Assembly (NCBI GenBank): GCA_044226625.1 | Contig: JBGAGQ010000004.1 | Location: 137,851 to 201,850, forward strand | Reading direction: 5' to 3' | Length of the DNA stretch: 64,000 nt | DNA from: Thermoanaerobaculia bacterium | GTDB taxonomy: Bacteria; Acidobacteriota; Thermoanaerobaculia; Multivoradales; UBA5704 | Part shown: in pieces, positions 1,745 through 46,949 of the stretch | Position numbering within the stretch: the stretch's first letter is position 1 | Layout: each line of letters opens with the position of its first letter | Notes under the pieces: generated by a model | The model's database searches: none | Seen by the model: the letters and a program-made list of their open reading frames with translations, nothing else | What the model was told of the DNA's origin: nothing | Made by a program: the position numbers and the translations under genes

Positions 1745-2773
1745 ATGGACAGCGCCACGCACCGCTCGCCCACCCGCATCGGTATCAACGGCTTCGGACG
1801 CATCGGCCGGAGCGTCTTTCGCATCCTCTCCGACCGCGAGGATCTCGAGGTGGTCGCGATCAACGACCTCTACGAGAACGAGCAGCTCGCCTATCTCTTG
1901 AAATATGACTCCCTGATGCGCACCTTCCCGCGCGCGGTGAAGACCGACGACGATTTCCTCTACGTCGACGATCGGAAGATCGCGATGACCGCGGAAAAGG
2001 ATCCGGCGCAGATTCCCTGGGCCGGGCTGGGCGTCGATCTGGTGATCGAGTCGTCGGGCGTCTTCACCAAACGGGAGAAGCTCGAGAAGCACCTGACGGC
2101 GGGAGCGAAGAAGGTGGTCCTCACCGTTCCGGCGAAGGACGAGATCGACGCCACGATCGTCGTCGGCGTGAACGACGACACGCTGCTCCCCTCGCACCGG
2201 ATCGTCTCGAACGCCTCGTGCACCACCAACTGCCTGGCGCCGATCGCCAAGATCCTCGACGACTCGTTCGGCATCGTCGAAGGCTTCCTGACCACGGTGC
2301 ACGCCTACACCAACGACCAGCGTCTCGCCGACGTCCCCCACAAGGATTTTCGCCGTAGCCGGGCGGCGACCCAGAACATCATCCCGACGACCACCGGCGC
2401 CGCGCGCGCGGTGGGAAAGGTCCTGCCGAAGCTCAAGGGCAAGCTCGACGGTCTCGCCATGCGCGTGCCGGTGCCCGACGGATCGACGATCGATTTCGTC
2501 TGCCGTCTGAACGCGAGGCCGAACGTCGCGGACGTCAACGCGGCGGTGCGGACGGCGGCCGAGGGCTCCTTCCTCCGGCTGGTCGAATACAGCGAGGTGC
2601 CTCTGGTTTCCTCCGACATCATCGGCAACCCGCACTCGTCGATCTTCGACGCCCTCTCCACCCAGGCGACCGGCGACGGCTTCGCGAAGGTCGTCGCCTG
2701 GTACGACAACGAATGGGGCTATTCGAACCGCCTGGTCGACCTGATCGACCGGATGGTGGCGGTGGGAGGCTAG
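1745..2773 (+). CDS. gap: Type I glyceraldehyde-3-phosphate dehydrogenase
   Basis: IGINGFGRIGR, SNASCTTNCLAP, TTVHAYT, NIIPTTTGAA, MRVP and WYDNEWGY are all intact. Start ATG 1745. Confidence 0.97.
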   Translation: MDSATHRSPTRIGINGFGRIGRSVFRILSDREDLEVVAINDLYENEQLAYLLKYDSLMRTFPRAVKTDDDFLYVDDRKIAMTAEKDPAQIPWAGLGVDLVIESSGVFTKREKLEKHLTAGAKKVVLTVPAKDEIDATIVVGVNDDTLLPSHRIVSNASCTTNCLAPIAKILDDSFGIVEGFLTTVHAYTNDQRLADVPHKDFRRSRAATQNIIPTTTGAARAVGKVLPKLKGKLDGLAMRVPVPDGSTIDFVCRLNARPNVADVNAAVRTAAEGSFLRLVEYSEVPLVSSDIIGNPHSSIFDALSTQATGDGFAKVVAWYDNEWGYSNRLVDLIDRMVAVGG

Positions 2774-2818
2774 CCGGCCGCCCACCGCGATGCCGGCCCG
2801 GCGCGGACTACGGCCGGC

Positions 2819-3385
2819 CTACCGCCGGGCGACCGAGGTGCCCGGCTTGGCGCCGCCGAGGAGCCGGATTTGCTCGTCGATCGCCTTCGTCAGTTGCGCG
2901 CCCGCGGAGGATCCCCAGTCAATCTGCTGGTGGGCGATGCGCCCCTTGCCGTCGATCACGAAGTAAGTGGGAAATCCCTGGACGCCGTACGCGCGGCGCA
3001 GCTTGCCCTCACCATCCCAAACCTGCGTAGCGGGTGAGGGGTTGGCTTCGAGGAACAGGCGAAGCGTCGCGAGCGTCTGGTCCCCGCTCACGGAGATCAT
3101 CGTGAACTTCGCCGGGTCGTACCGCCGGACGATCGCGTCGAGCTGCGGCAACGCCGCGCGGCATGGACCGCACCAGGTGGCCCAAAAGTCGAGCAGGACG
3201 ACTTTTCCCGCCAAATCTTTGGCGTGAATCAGATGCCCGTCGACGGTCGCAAACTCGAGCGTCGGAGCCGGGATCAGGGCGGGGGCCGGGGCGGCGGCCG
3301 GTTCCGCGCCGCGCGCCTCCGCCGGCGTCACTCCCGCCCAGATCGCGAGCGTAGCGGCGAAGCAGGCGGCCGTGAGTGCTCTCAC
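2819..3385 (-). CDS. TlpA-family thiol-disulfide reductase (exported)
   Basis: Signal peptide; GKVVLLDFWATWCGPC; GFPT cis-Pro loop. Confidence 0.9.
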   Translation of the reverse strand: MRALTAACFAATLAIWAGVTPAEARGAEPAAAPAPALIPAPTLEFATVDGHLIHAKDLAGKVVLLDFWATWCGPCRAALPQLDAIVRRYDPAKFTMISVSGDQTLATLRLFLEANPSPATQVWDGEGKLRRAYGVQGFPTYFVIDGKGRIAHQQIDWGSSAGAQLTKAIDEQIRLLGGAKPGTSVARR

Positions 3386-3918
3386 GCCTTGCTCCGGCCG
3401 GCCGCGAGCTTGCCGAGCTCCGCCGTTATCGCCCGGTCGAGATCCGGTCCGTACCCGTCGCGCCAGCCGTAGAGGGTGTAGACCACTCGCCCCTCGGGAT
3501 CGATCAACAGATGGGTCGGCAGGCCCTGGACGTTGAACTGCGCGCTCAGCTGACCTCGTCCGTCCCAGACCTGATGTGACATCGGCGGATGCTGGGTGAG
3601 GAAACGCCGCACCGGCTCCTCACTCGAGTCGGCGCTGATCGAGATCCGGGCGAACGGCTTACCGGAGAGGCGTTGGGTGATCGCCTCCACTTCCGGCCGC
3701 GATTTCGCGCAGTAGCCGCACCAGGTCGCCCAGAAATCGACCAGCACGACCTTGCCGGCGAAATCCTTCGGACCGATCTCCTTGCCGTCGATCGTGCGGA
3801 ACTGGAGCGTCGGGGCCGGGTAGGGCTGGACGGCCGAAGTCCGAGTCGGAGCGGCGTCCGCGGCGAAGGCCAGCAACGCGAGGCCGCAGGCGGCGAACAG
3901 GGCATAGATTCGTTTCAC
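3382..3918 (-). CDS. TlpA-family thiol-disulfide reductase (exported)
   Basis: GTG 3918 after AAGGAG; signal peptide; DFWATWCGYC; GLPT; GTGA overlap with the downstream paralog. Confidence 0.9.
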   Translation of the reverse strand: MKRIYALFAACGLALLAFAADAAPTRTSAVQPYPAPTLQFRTIDGKEIGPKDFAGKVVLVDFWATWCGYCAKSRPEVEAITQRLSGKPFARISISADSSEEPVRRFLTQHPPMSHQVWDGRGQLSAQFNVQGLPTHLLIDPEGRVVYTLYGWRDGYGPDLDRAITAELGKLAAGRSKA

Positions 3919-43278: not shown

Positions 43279-44055
43279 TCAAAACCCCGGCTCGTGGCGG
43301 CGAATCTCGATCTTGGGCTCCGGGCGTTCCGGCGGCAGCTTAACTCCCGCGACGATCGAGATCCGGCCGATCGCGTCATTGCAGGTGGTCTCGAAGTCGG
43401 TTACCAACCGAAGGACCTTACGGTCCGCCTCCACGCCGTACTCGAGGACGTGAAACTGGCCTTCCTCCTCGTTACAACCGCCCGTTTCGACGGAGAAGTC
43501 GATACCCGCGTAAGGACCTTTGTTGAAGGGCCAGCGCTCCGCCCTGGAGTAGAAGCCGCGAACGAGGCGTTCTCCCTTGCGCGGACCGAAATCGAGGTGG
43601 TATTGGCTCCTACCCTCGACCTCGATCGACACGCTGCTGGACTCCATCATTCGGATCGAGAACGACGCGAGGTCTTCGGTTAGGACTAGCCGGGCACCGC
43701 CGGCCGCGACCTCGCTTCCTCGGTTGAGCAGACAAAGAAAATTCGAGTGCTTCTCCATCAGGTCGCCGCAGGCGTCTTCGATATCGGTGAAGGCGAGCCT
43801 CCTCCCGGGAGAGACCGGAGCCTCGAACGATGGCGCCGAGCGGCGTCGGGAAAGGGGAGCCGCGGGCAGCTCGGGCTGCCGCACCGGTTCTCGGCTCTCT
43901 ACGACCGGCGGCGCGGCCTCGACCGCGATGGCGGGCGGCGGAGCGAGGACCACCGACCTCCGCCCGAGGAAAAAGCCGACGATACCGAGGCAGAGATCGA
44001 AAGCGAGAACGATCGAAAAAAGGAACACCGTCGATCGGCGCAGATGGTCGTACAT
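43279..44055 (-). CDS. Hypothetical single-TM protein with 4-Cys extracellular domain
   Basis: Paralog of 44079..44924 (AF.D..DACGDL, LCLLNR, FGP.KG..L..GFY, DF...CN.AIGRISI). Confidence 0.7.
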   Translation of the reverse strand: MYDHLRRSTVFLFSIVLAFDLCLGIVGFFLGRRSVVLAPPPAIAVEAAPPVVESREPVRQPELPAAPLSRRRSAPSFEAPVSPGRRLAFTDIEDACGDLMEKHSNFLCLLNRGSEVAAGGARLVLTEDLASFSIRMMESSSVSIEVEGRSQYHLDFGPRKGERLVRGFYSRAERWPFNKGPYAGIDFSVETGGCNEEEGQFHVLEYGVEADRKVLRLVTDFETTCNDAIGRISIVAGVKLPPERPEPKIEIRRHEPGF

Positions 44056-44078
44056 TGGGCTCTGGGCTCCGGAGCTCT

Positions 44079-44924
44079 CTAACGGGTCGAGTCTCCCGCC
44101 AGCTCACGAGGGTGCGGGTCGAGCGGCGGCCTTGGCTTGACCGGACGGTCGGCCCGAATGATGGAAATACGCCCGATGGCTCCGTTGCAATCGGAATCGA
44201 AATCCGCCACGAACCGCAAAATCCTGCCATCGCCGGTTTGGGTGTAGTCGAGGATCAGGAATCGGCCGTCCTGGACTTCACAGGTCGAACCCGTCGACAC
44301 ATCGAGCCCGGGATAGGGTCCGGCGTGGGAAAACGAGCTCAACGCGCCGCCATAAAATCCCGGGATGAGCGGCTTACCTTTGGGCGGACCGAAACGGAGG
44401 GAATATCTTTCCTTTCCTTCGACCCCGATCGACACGCCGTTGTTGGACATCGCAGAGATCGAAAATTTCGCCAGCGCCTCGTCGACGACCAACCGGGAGC
44501 CACGAGCGAGAAGCTCGCCTTCTCGATTCAACAGGCACAAGTAGTTTCGACGCGAGGCCAGGTCGCCGCAGGCGTCTTGCACATCCTCGAAGGCCAAAGG
44601 GTCACCCGGCGAGGTAGGCGGCGCATCGGCGCGGTTCGACTCCCGCTCAGGGGGCGTCGCGTCCTTCTCGATGGGCGCGCCGCCCGAAGGGCTCTTCGTC
44701 GCCTCTGGACCGACGGGGGACGCGGCGACCTGAAGAGGGACGGATCGTCGCCCGAGGAGGAATCCCAAGAGCCCCAAAACCCCGCCGAGAAGGAGCGCGA
44801 CGGCTAACAGGATCACCGCGTGGCGGCGTTCGTCGGCCTGATCGACGAAGACTCGAACCTCAGGCCGGCCGCGGTCGGGGCTCCGCCGCGCGAGCGAGCC
44901 GGGGCTCGGAGAAATCTCAGGCAT
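44079..44924 (-). CDS. Hypothetical single-TM protein with 4-Cys extracellular domain
   Basis: GGGGAG RBS; paralog of 43279..44055. Confidence 0.75.
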   Translation of the reverse strand: MPEISPSPGSLARRSPDRGRPEVRVFVDQADERRHAVILLAVALLLGGVLGLLGFLLGRRSVPLQVAASPVGPEATKSPSGGAPIEKDATPPERESNRADAPPTSPGDPLAFEDVQDACGDLASRRNYLCLLNREGELLARGSRLVVDEALAKFSISAMSNNGVSIGVEGKERYSLRFGPPKGKPLIPGFYGGALSSFSHAGPYPGLDVSTGSTCEVQDGRFLILDYTQTGDGRILRFVADFDSDCNGAIGRISIIRADRPVKPRPPLDPHPRELAGDSTR

Positions 44925-44997
44925 TCCAGCTCCCCTCTCTGCGCACGAAAATGTTCGCCCTTTAGATGGCGGATTTTAGCATTCGCCCCGATCGGGC

Positions 44998-45026
44998 TTG
45001 ACTTCGTCTCCTAGGACTTCAATACT
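44998..45026 (+). promoter_or_regulatory. Sigma70-type promoter of the aromatic leader / pheA-aroF
   Basis: TTGACT (44998-45003), 17-bp spacer, AATACT (45021-45026). Confidence 0.65.
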
Positions 45027-45035
45027 CCGGGTCCC

Positions 45036-45107
45036 ATGACGACGTTTGGCTGGCACTACTACTTTACGTACCGTGACGCGGGGACTTCCGCGTTCGCGTC
45101 CGGGTAG
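45036..45107 (+). CDS. Attenuator leader peptide MTTFGWHYYFTYRDAGTSAFASG
   Basis: 23-aa ORF with 3 Phe, 1 Trp and 3 Tyr, double TAG stop, directly before a terminator and an aromatic biosynthesis gene. Confidence 0.88.
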   Translation: MTTFGWHYYFTYRDAGTSAFASG

Positions 45108-45131
45108 TAGCGCCCGCACGACTCGAACCCG

Positions 45132-45170
45132 AAAGCGCCCCGCCGGAAACGGTGGGGCGCTTTTGCTTTT
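45132..45170 (+). terminator. Attenuator (intrinsic terminator)
   Basis: AAAGCGCCCCGCCG-GAAA-CGGTGGGGCGCTTT followed by TGCTTTT. Confidence 0.9.
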
Positions 45171-45212
45171 GGCGCGACTTTCGAGACGACGGGTCGGCCG
45201 AGGAGAGATCGG

Positions 45213-46949
45213 ATGCGAGTAGCGATACAGGGAACCCGAGGATCGTTCAGCGAAGCGGCCGCCCGCAAACAATGGCCCGATTTGGAGCTGCTCCCCCTAC
45301 GCACGGTCGCGGAGGTGGTCGAGGCGGTGCGCGACGGCGCCGCCGACGCCGGATGTCTCCCCTTCGAAAACTCGCTGGTCGGCTTGGTAGAGACCACCGA
45401 GGACGTCCTCCAACAGGCGTTTCGCGATCAGAGCCTCCATCTCGATCGGGAGATTCTGCTTCCGGTCCATCATGCGCTGCTCAGCGTGCCGGGCGCGTCG
45501 AAGTCGACGGTGCGCCGGGTCCTGTCGCATCCGGTAGCGCTCGATCAATGCCGCATTTGGCTCGGCAAGCACCTGCCGCAGGTGCAGAGGGTGAGCGAGT
45601 GGGACACGGCCGGCGGCGCCGAGATCGTGGCGCACGGCGCCGATCCCTCGCAGGCGGCGATCGGCTCCCTGCTCGCCGCTGAGATCTACGGCCTCGAGGT
45701 GATCGAAGACCGGATCGAGGACGACCCGACGAACCAGACCCGTTTCCTCACCTTCACCCGCGAGCCGCAGCCCGAGGTGCTCGACGGCCGTCCCAGGAAG
45801 ACCTCCCTCGTCGTCTGGACCGACCATCGCCCCGGCATGCTCGCCGCGGTCCTCCAGGCGTTCGCCACGCGCGGCATCAACCTGACCGCGCTCCAGTCGC
45901 GGCCGGAGAAATCCGCGCCCTGGACCTATCGGTTCTACATCGACGTCGAGGGCTCGGCCCGAGAACCGTTGGTAGCCGAGGCGATCGAAGCGATCGAGGC
46001 GCTCGCCAACCAGCTCGTCGTGCTCGGTAGCTACCTCGCCTGGCAAGGCCCCGCCTCGGCGAACGGCGATGCGGCCGCCGCGGGCGCGGCCTCGGCGCCG
46101 AACCACCGGCCGAAACCTGCCTTCCCCTTGTTCGACCGGCGGTATCAGCCGGAGGACACGATCGTCCGCATCGGCTCGATCGAGATCGGCGGCGGGACAC
46201 CCCTTCTGATCGCCGGCCCCTGCTCGGTCGAGAGCGAGGAGATGCTGATCGAAACCGCGCGCACGGTCGCCGCGGCGGGCGCCGACATGCTGCGAGGCGG
46301 CGCGTTCAAGCCGCGCACCTCTCCGTACGATTTCCAAGGTCTCGGAGTCCGCGGGTTGAAGATTCTCGCCGAGGCGCGGCGCGTCTCGGGGCTTCCGGTG
46401 GTCACCGAGGTGATGAGCTGGGAAGAGGTGCCGCTCGTCTCCCGCTACGCCGACATGCTCCAGATCGGCGCGCGCAACATGCAGAACTTCGCGCTGCTTC
46501 GCGCGGCGGGCCGCAGCGGCAAGCCGGTCATGCTCAAGCGCGGAGCCGGTGCGACGATCGACGAGTGGCTCCACGCGGCGGAGTACGTCCTCGCCCACGG
46601 CAACCCCCAGGTGGTCCTGTGCGAGCGAGGGATCCGGACGTTCGAGCGGGCCACCCGCCATACGCTCGATCTGAACGCCGTGGCGATCGTGCGCGAGCGG
46701 ACCCACCTGCCGGTGATCGTCGATCCGAGCCACGCCGCGGGCCTCCGCTCGATCGTGCCGGCGCTCACCCACGCGGGTCTCGCCGCGGGAGCGCAGGGGA
46801 TCATCGTCGAAGTCCATCCCGATCCCGACCACGCGCTCTCGGACGGCGCGCAAAGTCTCACCTTCCAGGGCTTCGCCGATCTCGCGGCGCAGCTCGGGAG
46901 AAAGGGGAAAGCACCCTCTGTGGAATCGGCGGAGCTCGCGGTGGTCTAG
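45213..46949 (+). CDS. Prephenate dehydratase (PDT-ACT) fused to type I-beta DAHP synthase
   Basis: QG..GSFS, PFENS..G, SHP.AL.QC, NQTRF, INLT..QSRP; then IAGPCSVES, GGAFKPRTSPY, IGARNMQN, CERG, DPSH, SDG.Q. Confidence 0.95.
   Translation: MRVAIQGTRGSFSEAAARKQWPDLELLPLRTVAEVVEAVRDGAADAGCLPFENSLVGLVETTEDVLQQAFRDQSLHLDREILLPVHHALLSVPGASKSTVRRVLSHPVALDQCRIWLGKHLPQVQRVSEWDTAGGAEIVAHGADPSQAAIGSLLAAEIYGLEVIEDRIEDDPTNQTRFLTFTREPQPEVLDGRPRKTSLVVWTDHRPGMLAAVLQAFATRGINLTALQSRPEKSAPWTYRFYIDVEGSAREPLVAEAIEAIEALANQLVVLGSYLAWQGPASANGDAAAAGAASAPNHRPKPAFPLFDRRYQPEDTIVRIGSIEIGGGTPLLIAGPCSVESEEMLIETARTVAAAGADMLRGGAFKPRTSPYDFQGLGVRGLKILAEARRVSGLPVVTEVMSWEEVPLVSRYADMLQIGARNMQNFALLRAAGRSGKPVMLKRGAGATIDEWLHAAEYVLAHGNPQVVLCERGIRTFERATRHTLDLNAVAIVRERTHLPVIVDPSHAAGLRSIVPALTHAGLAAGAQGIIVEVHPDPDHALSDGAQSLTFQGFADLAAQLGRKGKAPSVESAELAVV

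Follow-up and report, generated by a model that had tools for sequence, protein, structure and literature searches.

Results

Organization of the locus

The window, by which we mean the whole stretch of 64,000 nucleotides that was analysed, contains on its forward strand a gene in which a prephenate dehydratase (PDT) is fused to a DAHP synthase, with a Shine-Dalgarno (SD) sequence of its own:

45213–46949, + strand: prephenate dehydratase + ACT + type I-beta DAHP synthase fusion (pheA-aroG), 578 aa
45200–45205, + strand: Shine-Dalgarno GAGGAG of the structural gene, seven bases before 45213

The fusion carries the Pfam domains PF00800, PF01842 and PF00793 and matches NCBIfam NF008865 (236 bits) and TIGR01361 (390 bits), both over their cut-offs. 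It is the sole prephenate dehydratase match in the window's genome (6.6 Mb, 68% G+C). The second DAHP synthase of that genome has no leader or terminator upstream. A sequence-only reading of this DNA had placed a trpL/pheL-type leader-peptide attenuator before a gene joining DAHP synthase and prephenate dehydratase, a proposal that is supported by these domains and by the conservation described below.

The promoter named in that reading, TTGACT-17-AATACT, was recovered as the only sigma-70-like site on either strand of 44500–45700, where shuffled sequences gave a mean of 0.1 sites:

44998–45003, + strand: -35 box TTGACT, with a 17-nt spacer to the -10 box
45021–45026, + strand: -10 box AATACT (promoter span 44998–45026)

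Downstream of the promoter, a short ORF with clustered codons for products of the pathway precedes the biosynthetic gene, as in an attenuator:

45036–45107, + strand: leader ORF of 23 codons, from the ATG at 45036 to the TAG at 45105–45107, encoding MTTFGWHYYFTYRDAGTSAFASG
45108–45110, + strand: second in-frame TAG, directly after the leader's TAG (feature span 45036–45110)
45045–45071, + strand: regulatory codons F4 G W6 H7 Y8 Y9 F10 T Y12

Six aromatic codons and a His codon do lie within codons 4–12, as had been claimed. Stop-free stretches of nine codons with at least six F, W or Y codons are rare in the genome, numbering 99 among 11.8 million in six frames and falling in 55 places. Inspection of the sequence upstream of the leader ATG revealed no SD, likewise in the family alignment A1 (see below), in which GGAG is conserved before the start of the structural gene.

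Alternative folds of the leader RNA

As is also expected of an attenuator, the leader ORF is followed by an intrinsic terminator that precedes the structural gene:

45130–45170, + strand: intrinsic terminator, stem 45130–45145 paired with 45150–45165 (16 bp), GAAA loop, then UUUUGCUUUU

A GAAA-loop terminator with a U-tract had been seen earlier at 45132–45170, and we recovered it with a 16-bp stem and a hairpin energy of -30.6 kcal/mol. A simple consensus scan of the region listed no terminator, which may reflect the first four U being inside the stem. The region 45030–45175 as a whole folds with an energy of -74.9 kcal/mol (z = -4.81), and none of 200 shuffled sequences reached a value as low. 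When the RNA was cut at 45150 and folded without a ribosome, the minimum-energy fold (-44.9 kcal/mol) left the terminator arm unpaired. This fold state comprises two nested elements:

45040–45125, + strand: terminator-permissive long hairpin, 45056–45063 paired with 45103–45110, lower helices 45040–45054 paired with 45112–45125
45072–45098, + strand: inner hairpin ("pause hairpin"), 45072–45082 paired with 45087–45098 in the minimum-energy fold, sequestering GCGGGG 45078–45083

In the long hairpin, the pairing of codons H7–F10 with the stop-codon region closes around the inner hairpin, which covers the pause hairpin previously proposed at 45075–45100.

A different structure emerged from folds constrained by a ribosome on the leader:

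45078–45143, + strand: antiterminator, 45078–45090 paired with 45130–45143, stacked on 45092–45105 paired with 45112–45128 (constrained folds)

Its helices are 45078–45083 with 45138–45143, 45085–45090 with 45130–45135, and 45092–45105 with 45112–45128; the stop codons lie at and in its apical loop. With the RNA cut at 45150, placing the ribosomal A site at codon 4, 8, 9 or 10 gave the antiterminator fold, at -36.0 kcal/mol for codon 4 and -33.9 kcal/mol for codons 8–10. An A site at Y12 covers the strand 45078–45083 and the antiterminator fold is lost; in these models Y12 probably lies too near that strand for a stall there to be productive. Folding with and without ribosome masking thus switched the window RNA as expected. 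An alternative pairing that sequesters the left arm of the terminator had been predicted between 45089–45105 and 45121–45137; this overlaps the lower helix found here (45092–45105 with 45112–45128), and the capture of the terminator 5' arm falls to 45078–45090 and not to 45089–45105. The antiterminator shares a strand with the terminator and the two are mutually exclusive, as judged from constrained folds and from covariation (below).

Conservation of the element in two phyla

We assembled 82 related loci, namely four loci of the window's genus and 78 of 79 loci on public MAG contigs; the remaining one, L107, is a fragment without a 5' end and was left out. A further locus, G007, ends inside the gene and its upstream region is unreadable. 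One of the 82, L072, comes from a genome flagged as unpublished, and none of our conclusions hinges on it. The 79 contig loci comprise two same-genus Thermoanaerobaculia MAGs and three other Acidobacteriota, the rest being Gemmatimonadota. The fusion gene is 86–91% identical within the window's genus; the Gemmatimonadota fusions, mostly labelled Gemmatimonadales, show 61–80% identity. The same layout was found upstream of the fusion gene in all 82 loci (six of the window's genus, three of other Acidobacteriota and 73 of Gemmatimonadota), so that conserved aromatic-rich upstream ORFs do precede the orthologs. A first filter for ATG ORFs with at least four aromatic residues detected the leader in 74 of 78 loci, and anchoring on the -35 box detected it in 82 of 82. 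Those missed at first were L058 and L060 (three aromatic codons), L077 (overlapping ATGs) and L109 (GTG start). As a side observation, two metatranscriptome runs contained contig pieces of the coding region only, from relatives or near-identical DNA, and a 212-nt contig from a run of unknown kind spans 45021–45232 and shows neither strand nor ends.

A TTGAC-type -35 box and a -10 box, at a fixed spacing from the leader's start codon, are present in every one of the 82 loci. From the -35 box to the start codon there are 36 nt in 57 loci; the values span 35–39 nt overall and are 38–39 nt in the window's genus. The start codon lies about 7 nt past the -10 box in most of the family and 9 nt past it in the window. 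Transcription usually begins about 7 nt past a -10 box. A start codon 7–9 nt past the -10 box implies a leaderless leader peptide, and this promoter geometry suggests that transcription starts at the leader AUG or within a few bases of it, making the leader RNA itself leaderless. The earlier suggestion that the leader is translated without an SD fits this conserved geometry. The window's spacing of 9 nt, against the family's usual 7, would allow a leader of 2–3 nt. Across the window's genome, long ORFs that start at the leaderless-type spacing from a -10 box are in weak excess.

Conserved alternative hairpins followed by a terminator would also fit a switch that works independently of translation, such as a riboswitch or a tRNA-sensing or protein-binding leader, in which the ORF is incidental. 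The leader ORF nevertheless bears the marks of a translated frame: in all 82 loci a whole number of codons separates the start codon from an invariant TTTAC, although five different spacings occur (24–36 nt), and promoter and start codon keep their fixed distance. Synonymous exchange is seen among the Phe and Tyr codons (TTC 164 and TTT 89, TAC 47 and TAT 13 in the Gemmatimonadota leaders), the codon content of the leader matches the product of the pathway, and no Rfam riboswitch or T-box was matched at E <= 10. We therefore regard a translation-independent switch as very improbable; the kept frame and the synonymous codons suggest that the leader is translated by ribosomes. In L080 and L090, one-base indels 3' of the regulatory codons alter the peptide and a stop is still nearby. 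The toleration of these frame changes indicates that the C-terminal peptide sequence itself is probably not selected.

Covariation supports both predicted folds

RNAalifold on the whole alignment returned the terminator core only, and structures were then taken from constrained folds of each sequence. For the antiterminator, each RNA was cut before the 3' arm of the terminator and its 5' part masked up to a point 12 nt beyond the last UUU. Under these conditions one long nested structure formed in about 72 of the 82 sequences, with the ORF strand paired to the terminator 5' arm and a second helix bringing the stop codon into the apex. When the full-length sequences were folded unmasked, about 49 of the 82 formed the inner hairpin and 73 the terminator. 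We scored these structures against slid partners and against shuffles; the percentages paired are inflated, since folds of these very sequences supplied the structures that were counted, and the covariation shuffles ignore relatedness:

Antiterminator, alignment A1: 77.5% of cells paired, 34–49% slid; covariation 0.140, at most 0.073 slid; 0/500 shuffles
Antiterminator, alignment A2 (better aligned): 83.6% of cells paired, 34–50% slid; covariation 0.130, at most 0.063 slid; 0/500 shuffles
Terminator state, alignment A1: 87.6% of cells paired, 42–53% slid; covariation 0.136, at most 0.063 slid; 0/500 shuffles

Base-pair exchanges are evident at single positions. The antiterminator pair in A2 columns 63–126 is UA in 23 sequences, GC in 14, UG in 5 and AU in 4; among the inner-hairpin pairs of A1, columns 53–64 are CG in 24 and GC in 18, and columns 54–63 are GC in 49 and CG in 19. 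The terminator helix (helix 3) is 92.4% paired across the family. Little covariation is seen where the regulatory codons pair with the downstream strand; this helix is 76% paired and changes mostly by wobble. Both folds are present in all six members of the window's genus, where the long hairpin is kept and built from different letters, including those of the helix between codons and stop region. Covariation therefore supports both the predicted terminator-state fold and the mutually exclusive antiterminator.

Spacing and order of folding

Where would a ribosome act on these structures? In 81 of 82 loci, the antiterminator strand begins 12 nt beyond the last UUU, about the reach of a stalled ribosome. 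The stop codon lies 13–16 nt past the inner hairpin in 68 loci and about 13–17 nt before the next helix strand in 63, a spacing that in most of the family would seat a terminating ribosome in the apex of the antiterminator. Leaders of the window's genus have a shorter ORF, a stop 1–7 nt past the hairpin, and direct pairing of the regulatory codons with the stop region.

Equilibrium folding of RNAs that end before the 3' arm gives the terminator arm a mean pairing probability of 0.84 in the free state versus 0.87 in the stalled state over the 82 sequences. Equilibrium pairing separates the two states clearly in four of the 82, the window being among the better ones (0.58 free, 0.75–0.87 stalled), and the full-length RNA always favours the terminator thermodynamically. 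Given this near-equal pairing and the preference for the terminator, the switch must rest on the order of folding, and we infer a kinetic mechanism of the kind generally assumed for such attenuators. The direct-path barrier between the two window folds is estimated at about 41 kcal/mol, so whichever fold forms first should persist.

Which amino acids may be sensed

The leaders of the two main groups differ in their codons:

Gemmatimonadota leaders (n = 73): means F 3.47, Y 0.82, W 0.47, H 0.01; F, Y and W together in 33; F only in 28
Leaders of the window's genus (n = 6): means F 1.83, Y 2.33, W 0.83, H 1.0; F, Y and W together in 5; F only in 0

Within the genus, codons are conserved as F4 5/6, W6 5/6, H7 6/6, Y8 5/6, Y9 3/6, F10 6/6 and Y12 6/6. 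Codon content hints at which amino acids would count, and it can be read in two ways.

The same attenuator could be in effect a sensor of Phe only, its Tyr, Trp and His codons being passengers or kept for RNA pairing and the fusion being a Phe-dedicated isozyme. The 73 Gemmatimonadota leaders are Phe-dominated, 28 of them holding F alone, and UUU is the sole invariant regulatory codon of the family. The fused partner is the enzyme of the Phe branch. The Tyr codons of the window pair with the stop region, and RNA structure alone could keep them. The copy number of DAHP synthase points the same way. We counted matches to the type I-beta model in 50 genomes, which took in 23 of the 28 F-only loci and 23 of the 33 loci with F, Y and W. 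There were two matches in 4 of 4 genomes of the genus; 22 of 23 F-only genomes had two and one had one; and among the 23 genomes with F+Y+W leaders, 17 had two, four had three and two had one. All third matches fall below the family cut-off (two weak, two fragments), and with the two weak ones discounted 19 of these 23 genomes, and 45 of the 50, have two. With a second, unfused DAHP synthase in nearly all genomes, the argument that control of the entry step calls for all three amino acids is weakened. A prediction that mixed leaders would go with the fusion as the only DAHP synthase was not borne out, copy number being independent of leader type. In addition, the aroR leader of Corynebacterium (F-Y-F) is reported, in the summary given by PMC11802643, to raise aroF transcription under Phe limitation, the availability of Tyr having no effect.

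Set against sensing of Phe alone, the stall zone in the window's genus keeps about two Phe codons against two or three Tyr and one Trp, with Trp present in 5 of 6 leaders. By the standard of known Phe leaders, a signal of two Phe codons would be weak. Moreover, F, Y and W occur together in 40 of the 82 leaders, within 5–9 codons. We give the Phe-only sensor a substantial chance that falls short of even. Joint sensing of Phe, Tyr and Trp is plausible from the codons present.

Origin and spread

In a tree of 78 fusion proteins (FastTree) the window's genus is nested inside Gemmatimonadota with a support of 96, and with 97 in a quick IQ-TREE of 40; both trees were rooted on two 48%-identical fusions of the same order, and the outgroup branches are long. 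The other three Acidobacteriota are placed elsewhere in the same half of the tree, which suggests two separate transfers into Acidobacteriota. An AU test, whose groups were named after the first tree was seen, does not reject a single group of all seven Acidobacteriota (p = 0.168). It is likely that gene, promoter and switch were transferred together between the phyla.

To look beyond the fusion gene we used a covariance model, R1, built on the terminator-state structure. In the window's genome R1 scored this locus at 75.8 bits and the next match at 23 bits, with no second copy. Among 151 genomes of the order, 37 matched at E <= 0.01. We inspected eight of the best R1 loci in the order together with the second match in the window's genome. 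Genuine Phe-rich leaders, each preceding a chorismate mutase-prephenate dehydratase gene, account for four of the nine: G141, G128 and G039 have runs of F and what looks like a 5' leader of some 26 nt, and G027 has a leader containing TTTACC. The remaining five are nothing but terminators at gene ends, and since one of these scored E = 7e-8, the E-values of R1 are untrustworthy. A strict, if rough, scan of the window's genome for promoter, ORF and terminator returned this locus and three unconvincing matches. A looser scan, equally rough, gave 41 candidates, of which the top two, one ORF with a run of Phe and one with a run of Trp, fall within other coding regions and were rejected.

That R1 also matches gene-end terminators, at E-values down to 7e-8, is what one would see if a chance ORF lay beside a constitutive terminator or a small-RNA gene, and the best Rfam match of the region is a weak one, in which the terminator hairpin resembles a family of antisense RNAs (26.8 bits, for a gathering score of 50). 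Against a chance arrangement, the element accompanies the same gene in all 82 loci and in two phyla, and R1 gave no second copy in the window's genome. A peptide with an unrelated function of its own likewise sits poorly with the frame changes tolerated past the regulatory codons in L080 and L090. We find explanations of this kind barely credible.

Discussion

We conclude, with a probability of roughly 0.85, that the element controls the prephenate dehydratase/DAHP synthase fusion gene by ribosome-mediated (leader-peptide) attenuation of transcription. In the mechanism that we propose, transcription would start at or near the leader AUG and a ribosome would load on the leaderless RNA. When charged aromatic tRNAs are plentiful, it would reach the stop codons (45105–45110) and occupy what would become the apex of the antiterminator. 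Upon its departure, the regulatory codons would pair with the stop region and GCGGGG (45078–45083) would be locked in the inner hairpin, so that the terminator (45130–45170) could form and transcription would end before the gene. If Phe-, Tyr- or Trp-tRNA were scarce, the ribosome would stall on codons 4–10 and the regulatory codons would stay single-stranded; the helix 45092–45105 : 45112–45128 would then form, and 45078–45090 would capture the terminator 5' arm (45130–45143), allowing read-through.

A bolder version holds that the element is a multi-input sensor, in which a ribosome stalled at a Phe, a Tyr or a Trp codon would in each case open the antiterminator, that the family has been retuned by codon turnover, and that gene and switch moved together. 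Taken as a whole, we consider it rather unlikely. If it were true, a leaderless mini-gene would integrate three aromatic supplies for an enzyme that joins the first step of the pathway to its Phe branch, with retuning from the Phe-only leaders of some Gemmatimonadota to the Tyr-rich F/W/Y leaders of the Thermoanaerobaculia genus.

The attenuation mechanism itself is textbook. What we describe is very probably a well-conserved attenuator of the classical kind, whose family is uncatalogued and common to two poorly studied phyla. The Rfam leader families for Phe, Trp, His, Leu and Thr were unmatched in a cmscan of 44000–46000 at E <= 10, which gave four weak matches to others. A literature search for leader-peptide attenuation found no description in Gemmatimonadetes and, for Acidobacteria, a background mention only; a fusion of PDT with DAHP synthase was not described in any title or abstract of the search. 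The 82-member alignment with its two covarying folds suffices to seed an RNA family for annotation. The passage from Phe-only to mixed Phe/Tyr/Trp leaders on one scaffold constitutes a natural experiment on how codon composition relates to attenuator input, and the fixed spacing between promoter and start codon may add a case of leaderless translation in regulation.

How does the element compare with known systems? The gamma-proteobacterial pheL-pheA attenuator, as outlined in PMC3082878 and PMC11802643, has a short leader ORF with a run of Phe codons, alternative hairpins and an intrinsic terminator, and works by ribosome stalling. The window element resembles E. coli pheL-pheA, to the extent of that outline, in placing a leader ORF, alternative hairpins and a terminator upstream of a prephenate dehydratase gene. 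It differs in having no similarity to the pheL family in sequence or by Rfam model, in a leader that has no SD and starts 7–9 nt past the -10 box, in a PDT fused to DAHP synthase and not to chorismate mutase, in codons that mix Phe, Tyr and Trp, and in its hosts, Acidobacteriota and Gemmatimonadota.

In Corynebacterium glutamicum, a Phe-Tyr-Phe leader (aroR) precedes the DAHP synthase gene aroF, and stalling raises transcription (Neshat et al. 2014, as summarised in the reviews PMC11802643 and PMC7356990). Compared by description, both systems place mixed aromatic codons upstream of a DAHP synthase gene; unlike the window element, aroR-aroF belongs to another phylum, has no Trp codon reported in those summaries and controls an unfused enzyme. 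Leaderless leader peptides, for their part, are predicted to control attenuation in Deinococcus deserti (abstracted in PMC4007540), and Cys-rich leaderless short ORFs were shown to do so in mycobacteria (abstracted in bioRxiv 10.1101/834739). There, too, the RNA begins at the start codon, which in the window is suggested by promoter geometry; as those accounts present them, these leaders concern other amino acids, genes and phyla. Finally, the thrL and ilvL leaders of E. coli are multivalent, reading the end products of one branched pathway via several codons each. The window leader may likewise respond to more than one amino acid, but its Trp input would rest on a single codon.

Descent of the fusion gene and its leader

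Among loci L031-L109, PDT-ACT-DAHP synthase fusions are found widely in Gemmatimonadota, whose copies share 61-80% identity with the window's gene at 45213-46949. In our trees, the window's Thermoanaerobaculia genus was placed within the Gemmatimonadota fusion sequences. This nesting suggests that the fusion gene, its predicted promoter and the putative attenuator were transferred jointly between the phyla. A single Acidobacteriota group was not rejected by the AU test (p = 0.168).

In two relatives the fusion match is split or partial, and both keep the leader. On contig C2 of genome G004 (locus L006), the match comes as two segments that overlap, one covering residues 1-212 and the other 207-569, suggesting a frameshift or an assembly error. 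On contig C18 of genome G006 (locus L007), a clean match is limited to residues 1-327.

Besides the fusion, the window's own genome encodes another type I-beta DAHP synthase, on the minus strand of contig C72 at about 2670-3900.

The N terminus of this protein is extended by about 90 residues, and its gene has neither a leader nor a terminator upstream. The genome yielded no other match to prephenate dehydratase, leaving the attenuated fusion as its sole PDT match.

Codon usage in the leader

For the last regulatory Phe codon, 80 of the 82 loci use UUU (TTTAC column of both alignments of the leader family, A1 and A2; window 45063-45067) and the other two, L108 and L109, use UUC. The remaining leader Phe codons are mostly UUC (164 UUC versus 89 UUU in Gemmatimonadota). 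The preference for UUU at this position may reflect pairing with a downstream GGUAG or, alternatively, slow decoding. The His codon of the stall zone (H7, window 45054-45056) is present in 6/6 leaders of the genus versus 1/73 in Gemmatimonadota. It is paired within the long hairpin, and we found no evident link between His and the aromatic pathway.

Possible leaderless starts

In several ordinary pheA (CM-PDT) genes of the same order (L024, L025, L027, L028 and L030), a TATACT/TAATAC-like box precedes the gene's own start codon by ~7 nt. Judged from this spacing, the lineage may commonly use leaderless mRNAs. In the window's genome, long ORFs were only weakly in excess at this ~7-nt spacing.

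A 212-nt contig of X4 (one run, library kind not given) is an exact match to window 45021-45232, a stretch that starts within the -10 box and takes in the first 20 nt of the gene. As a contig, it carries no information on ends.

Distant leaders

The covariance model built on the terminator-state structure also matches plain ORF-end-plus-terminator sites (L119, L123, L124, L125 and L111) with E down to 7e-8; its E-values are too optimistic in G+C-rich genomes. More distant Phe-run leaders with terminators were found at L118, L120, L121 and L122 (genomes G141, G128, G039 and G027, respectively). These come from other families of the order and lie upstream of chorismate mutase-PDT(-DAHP synthase) genes. 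In three of the four, an apparent 26-nt 5' leader takes the place of a leaderless start.
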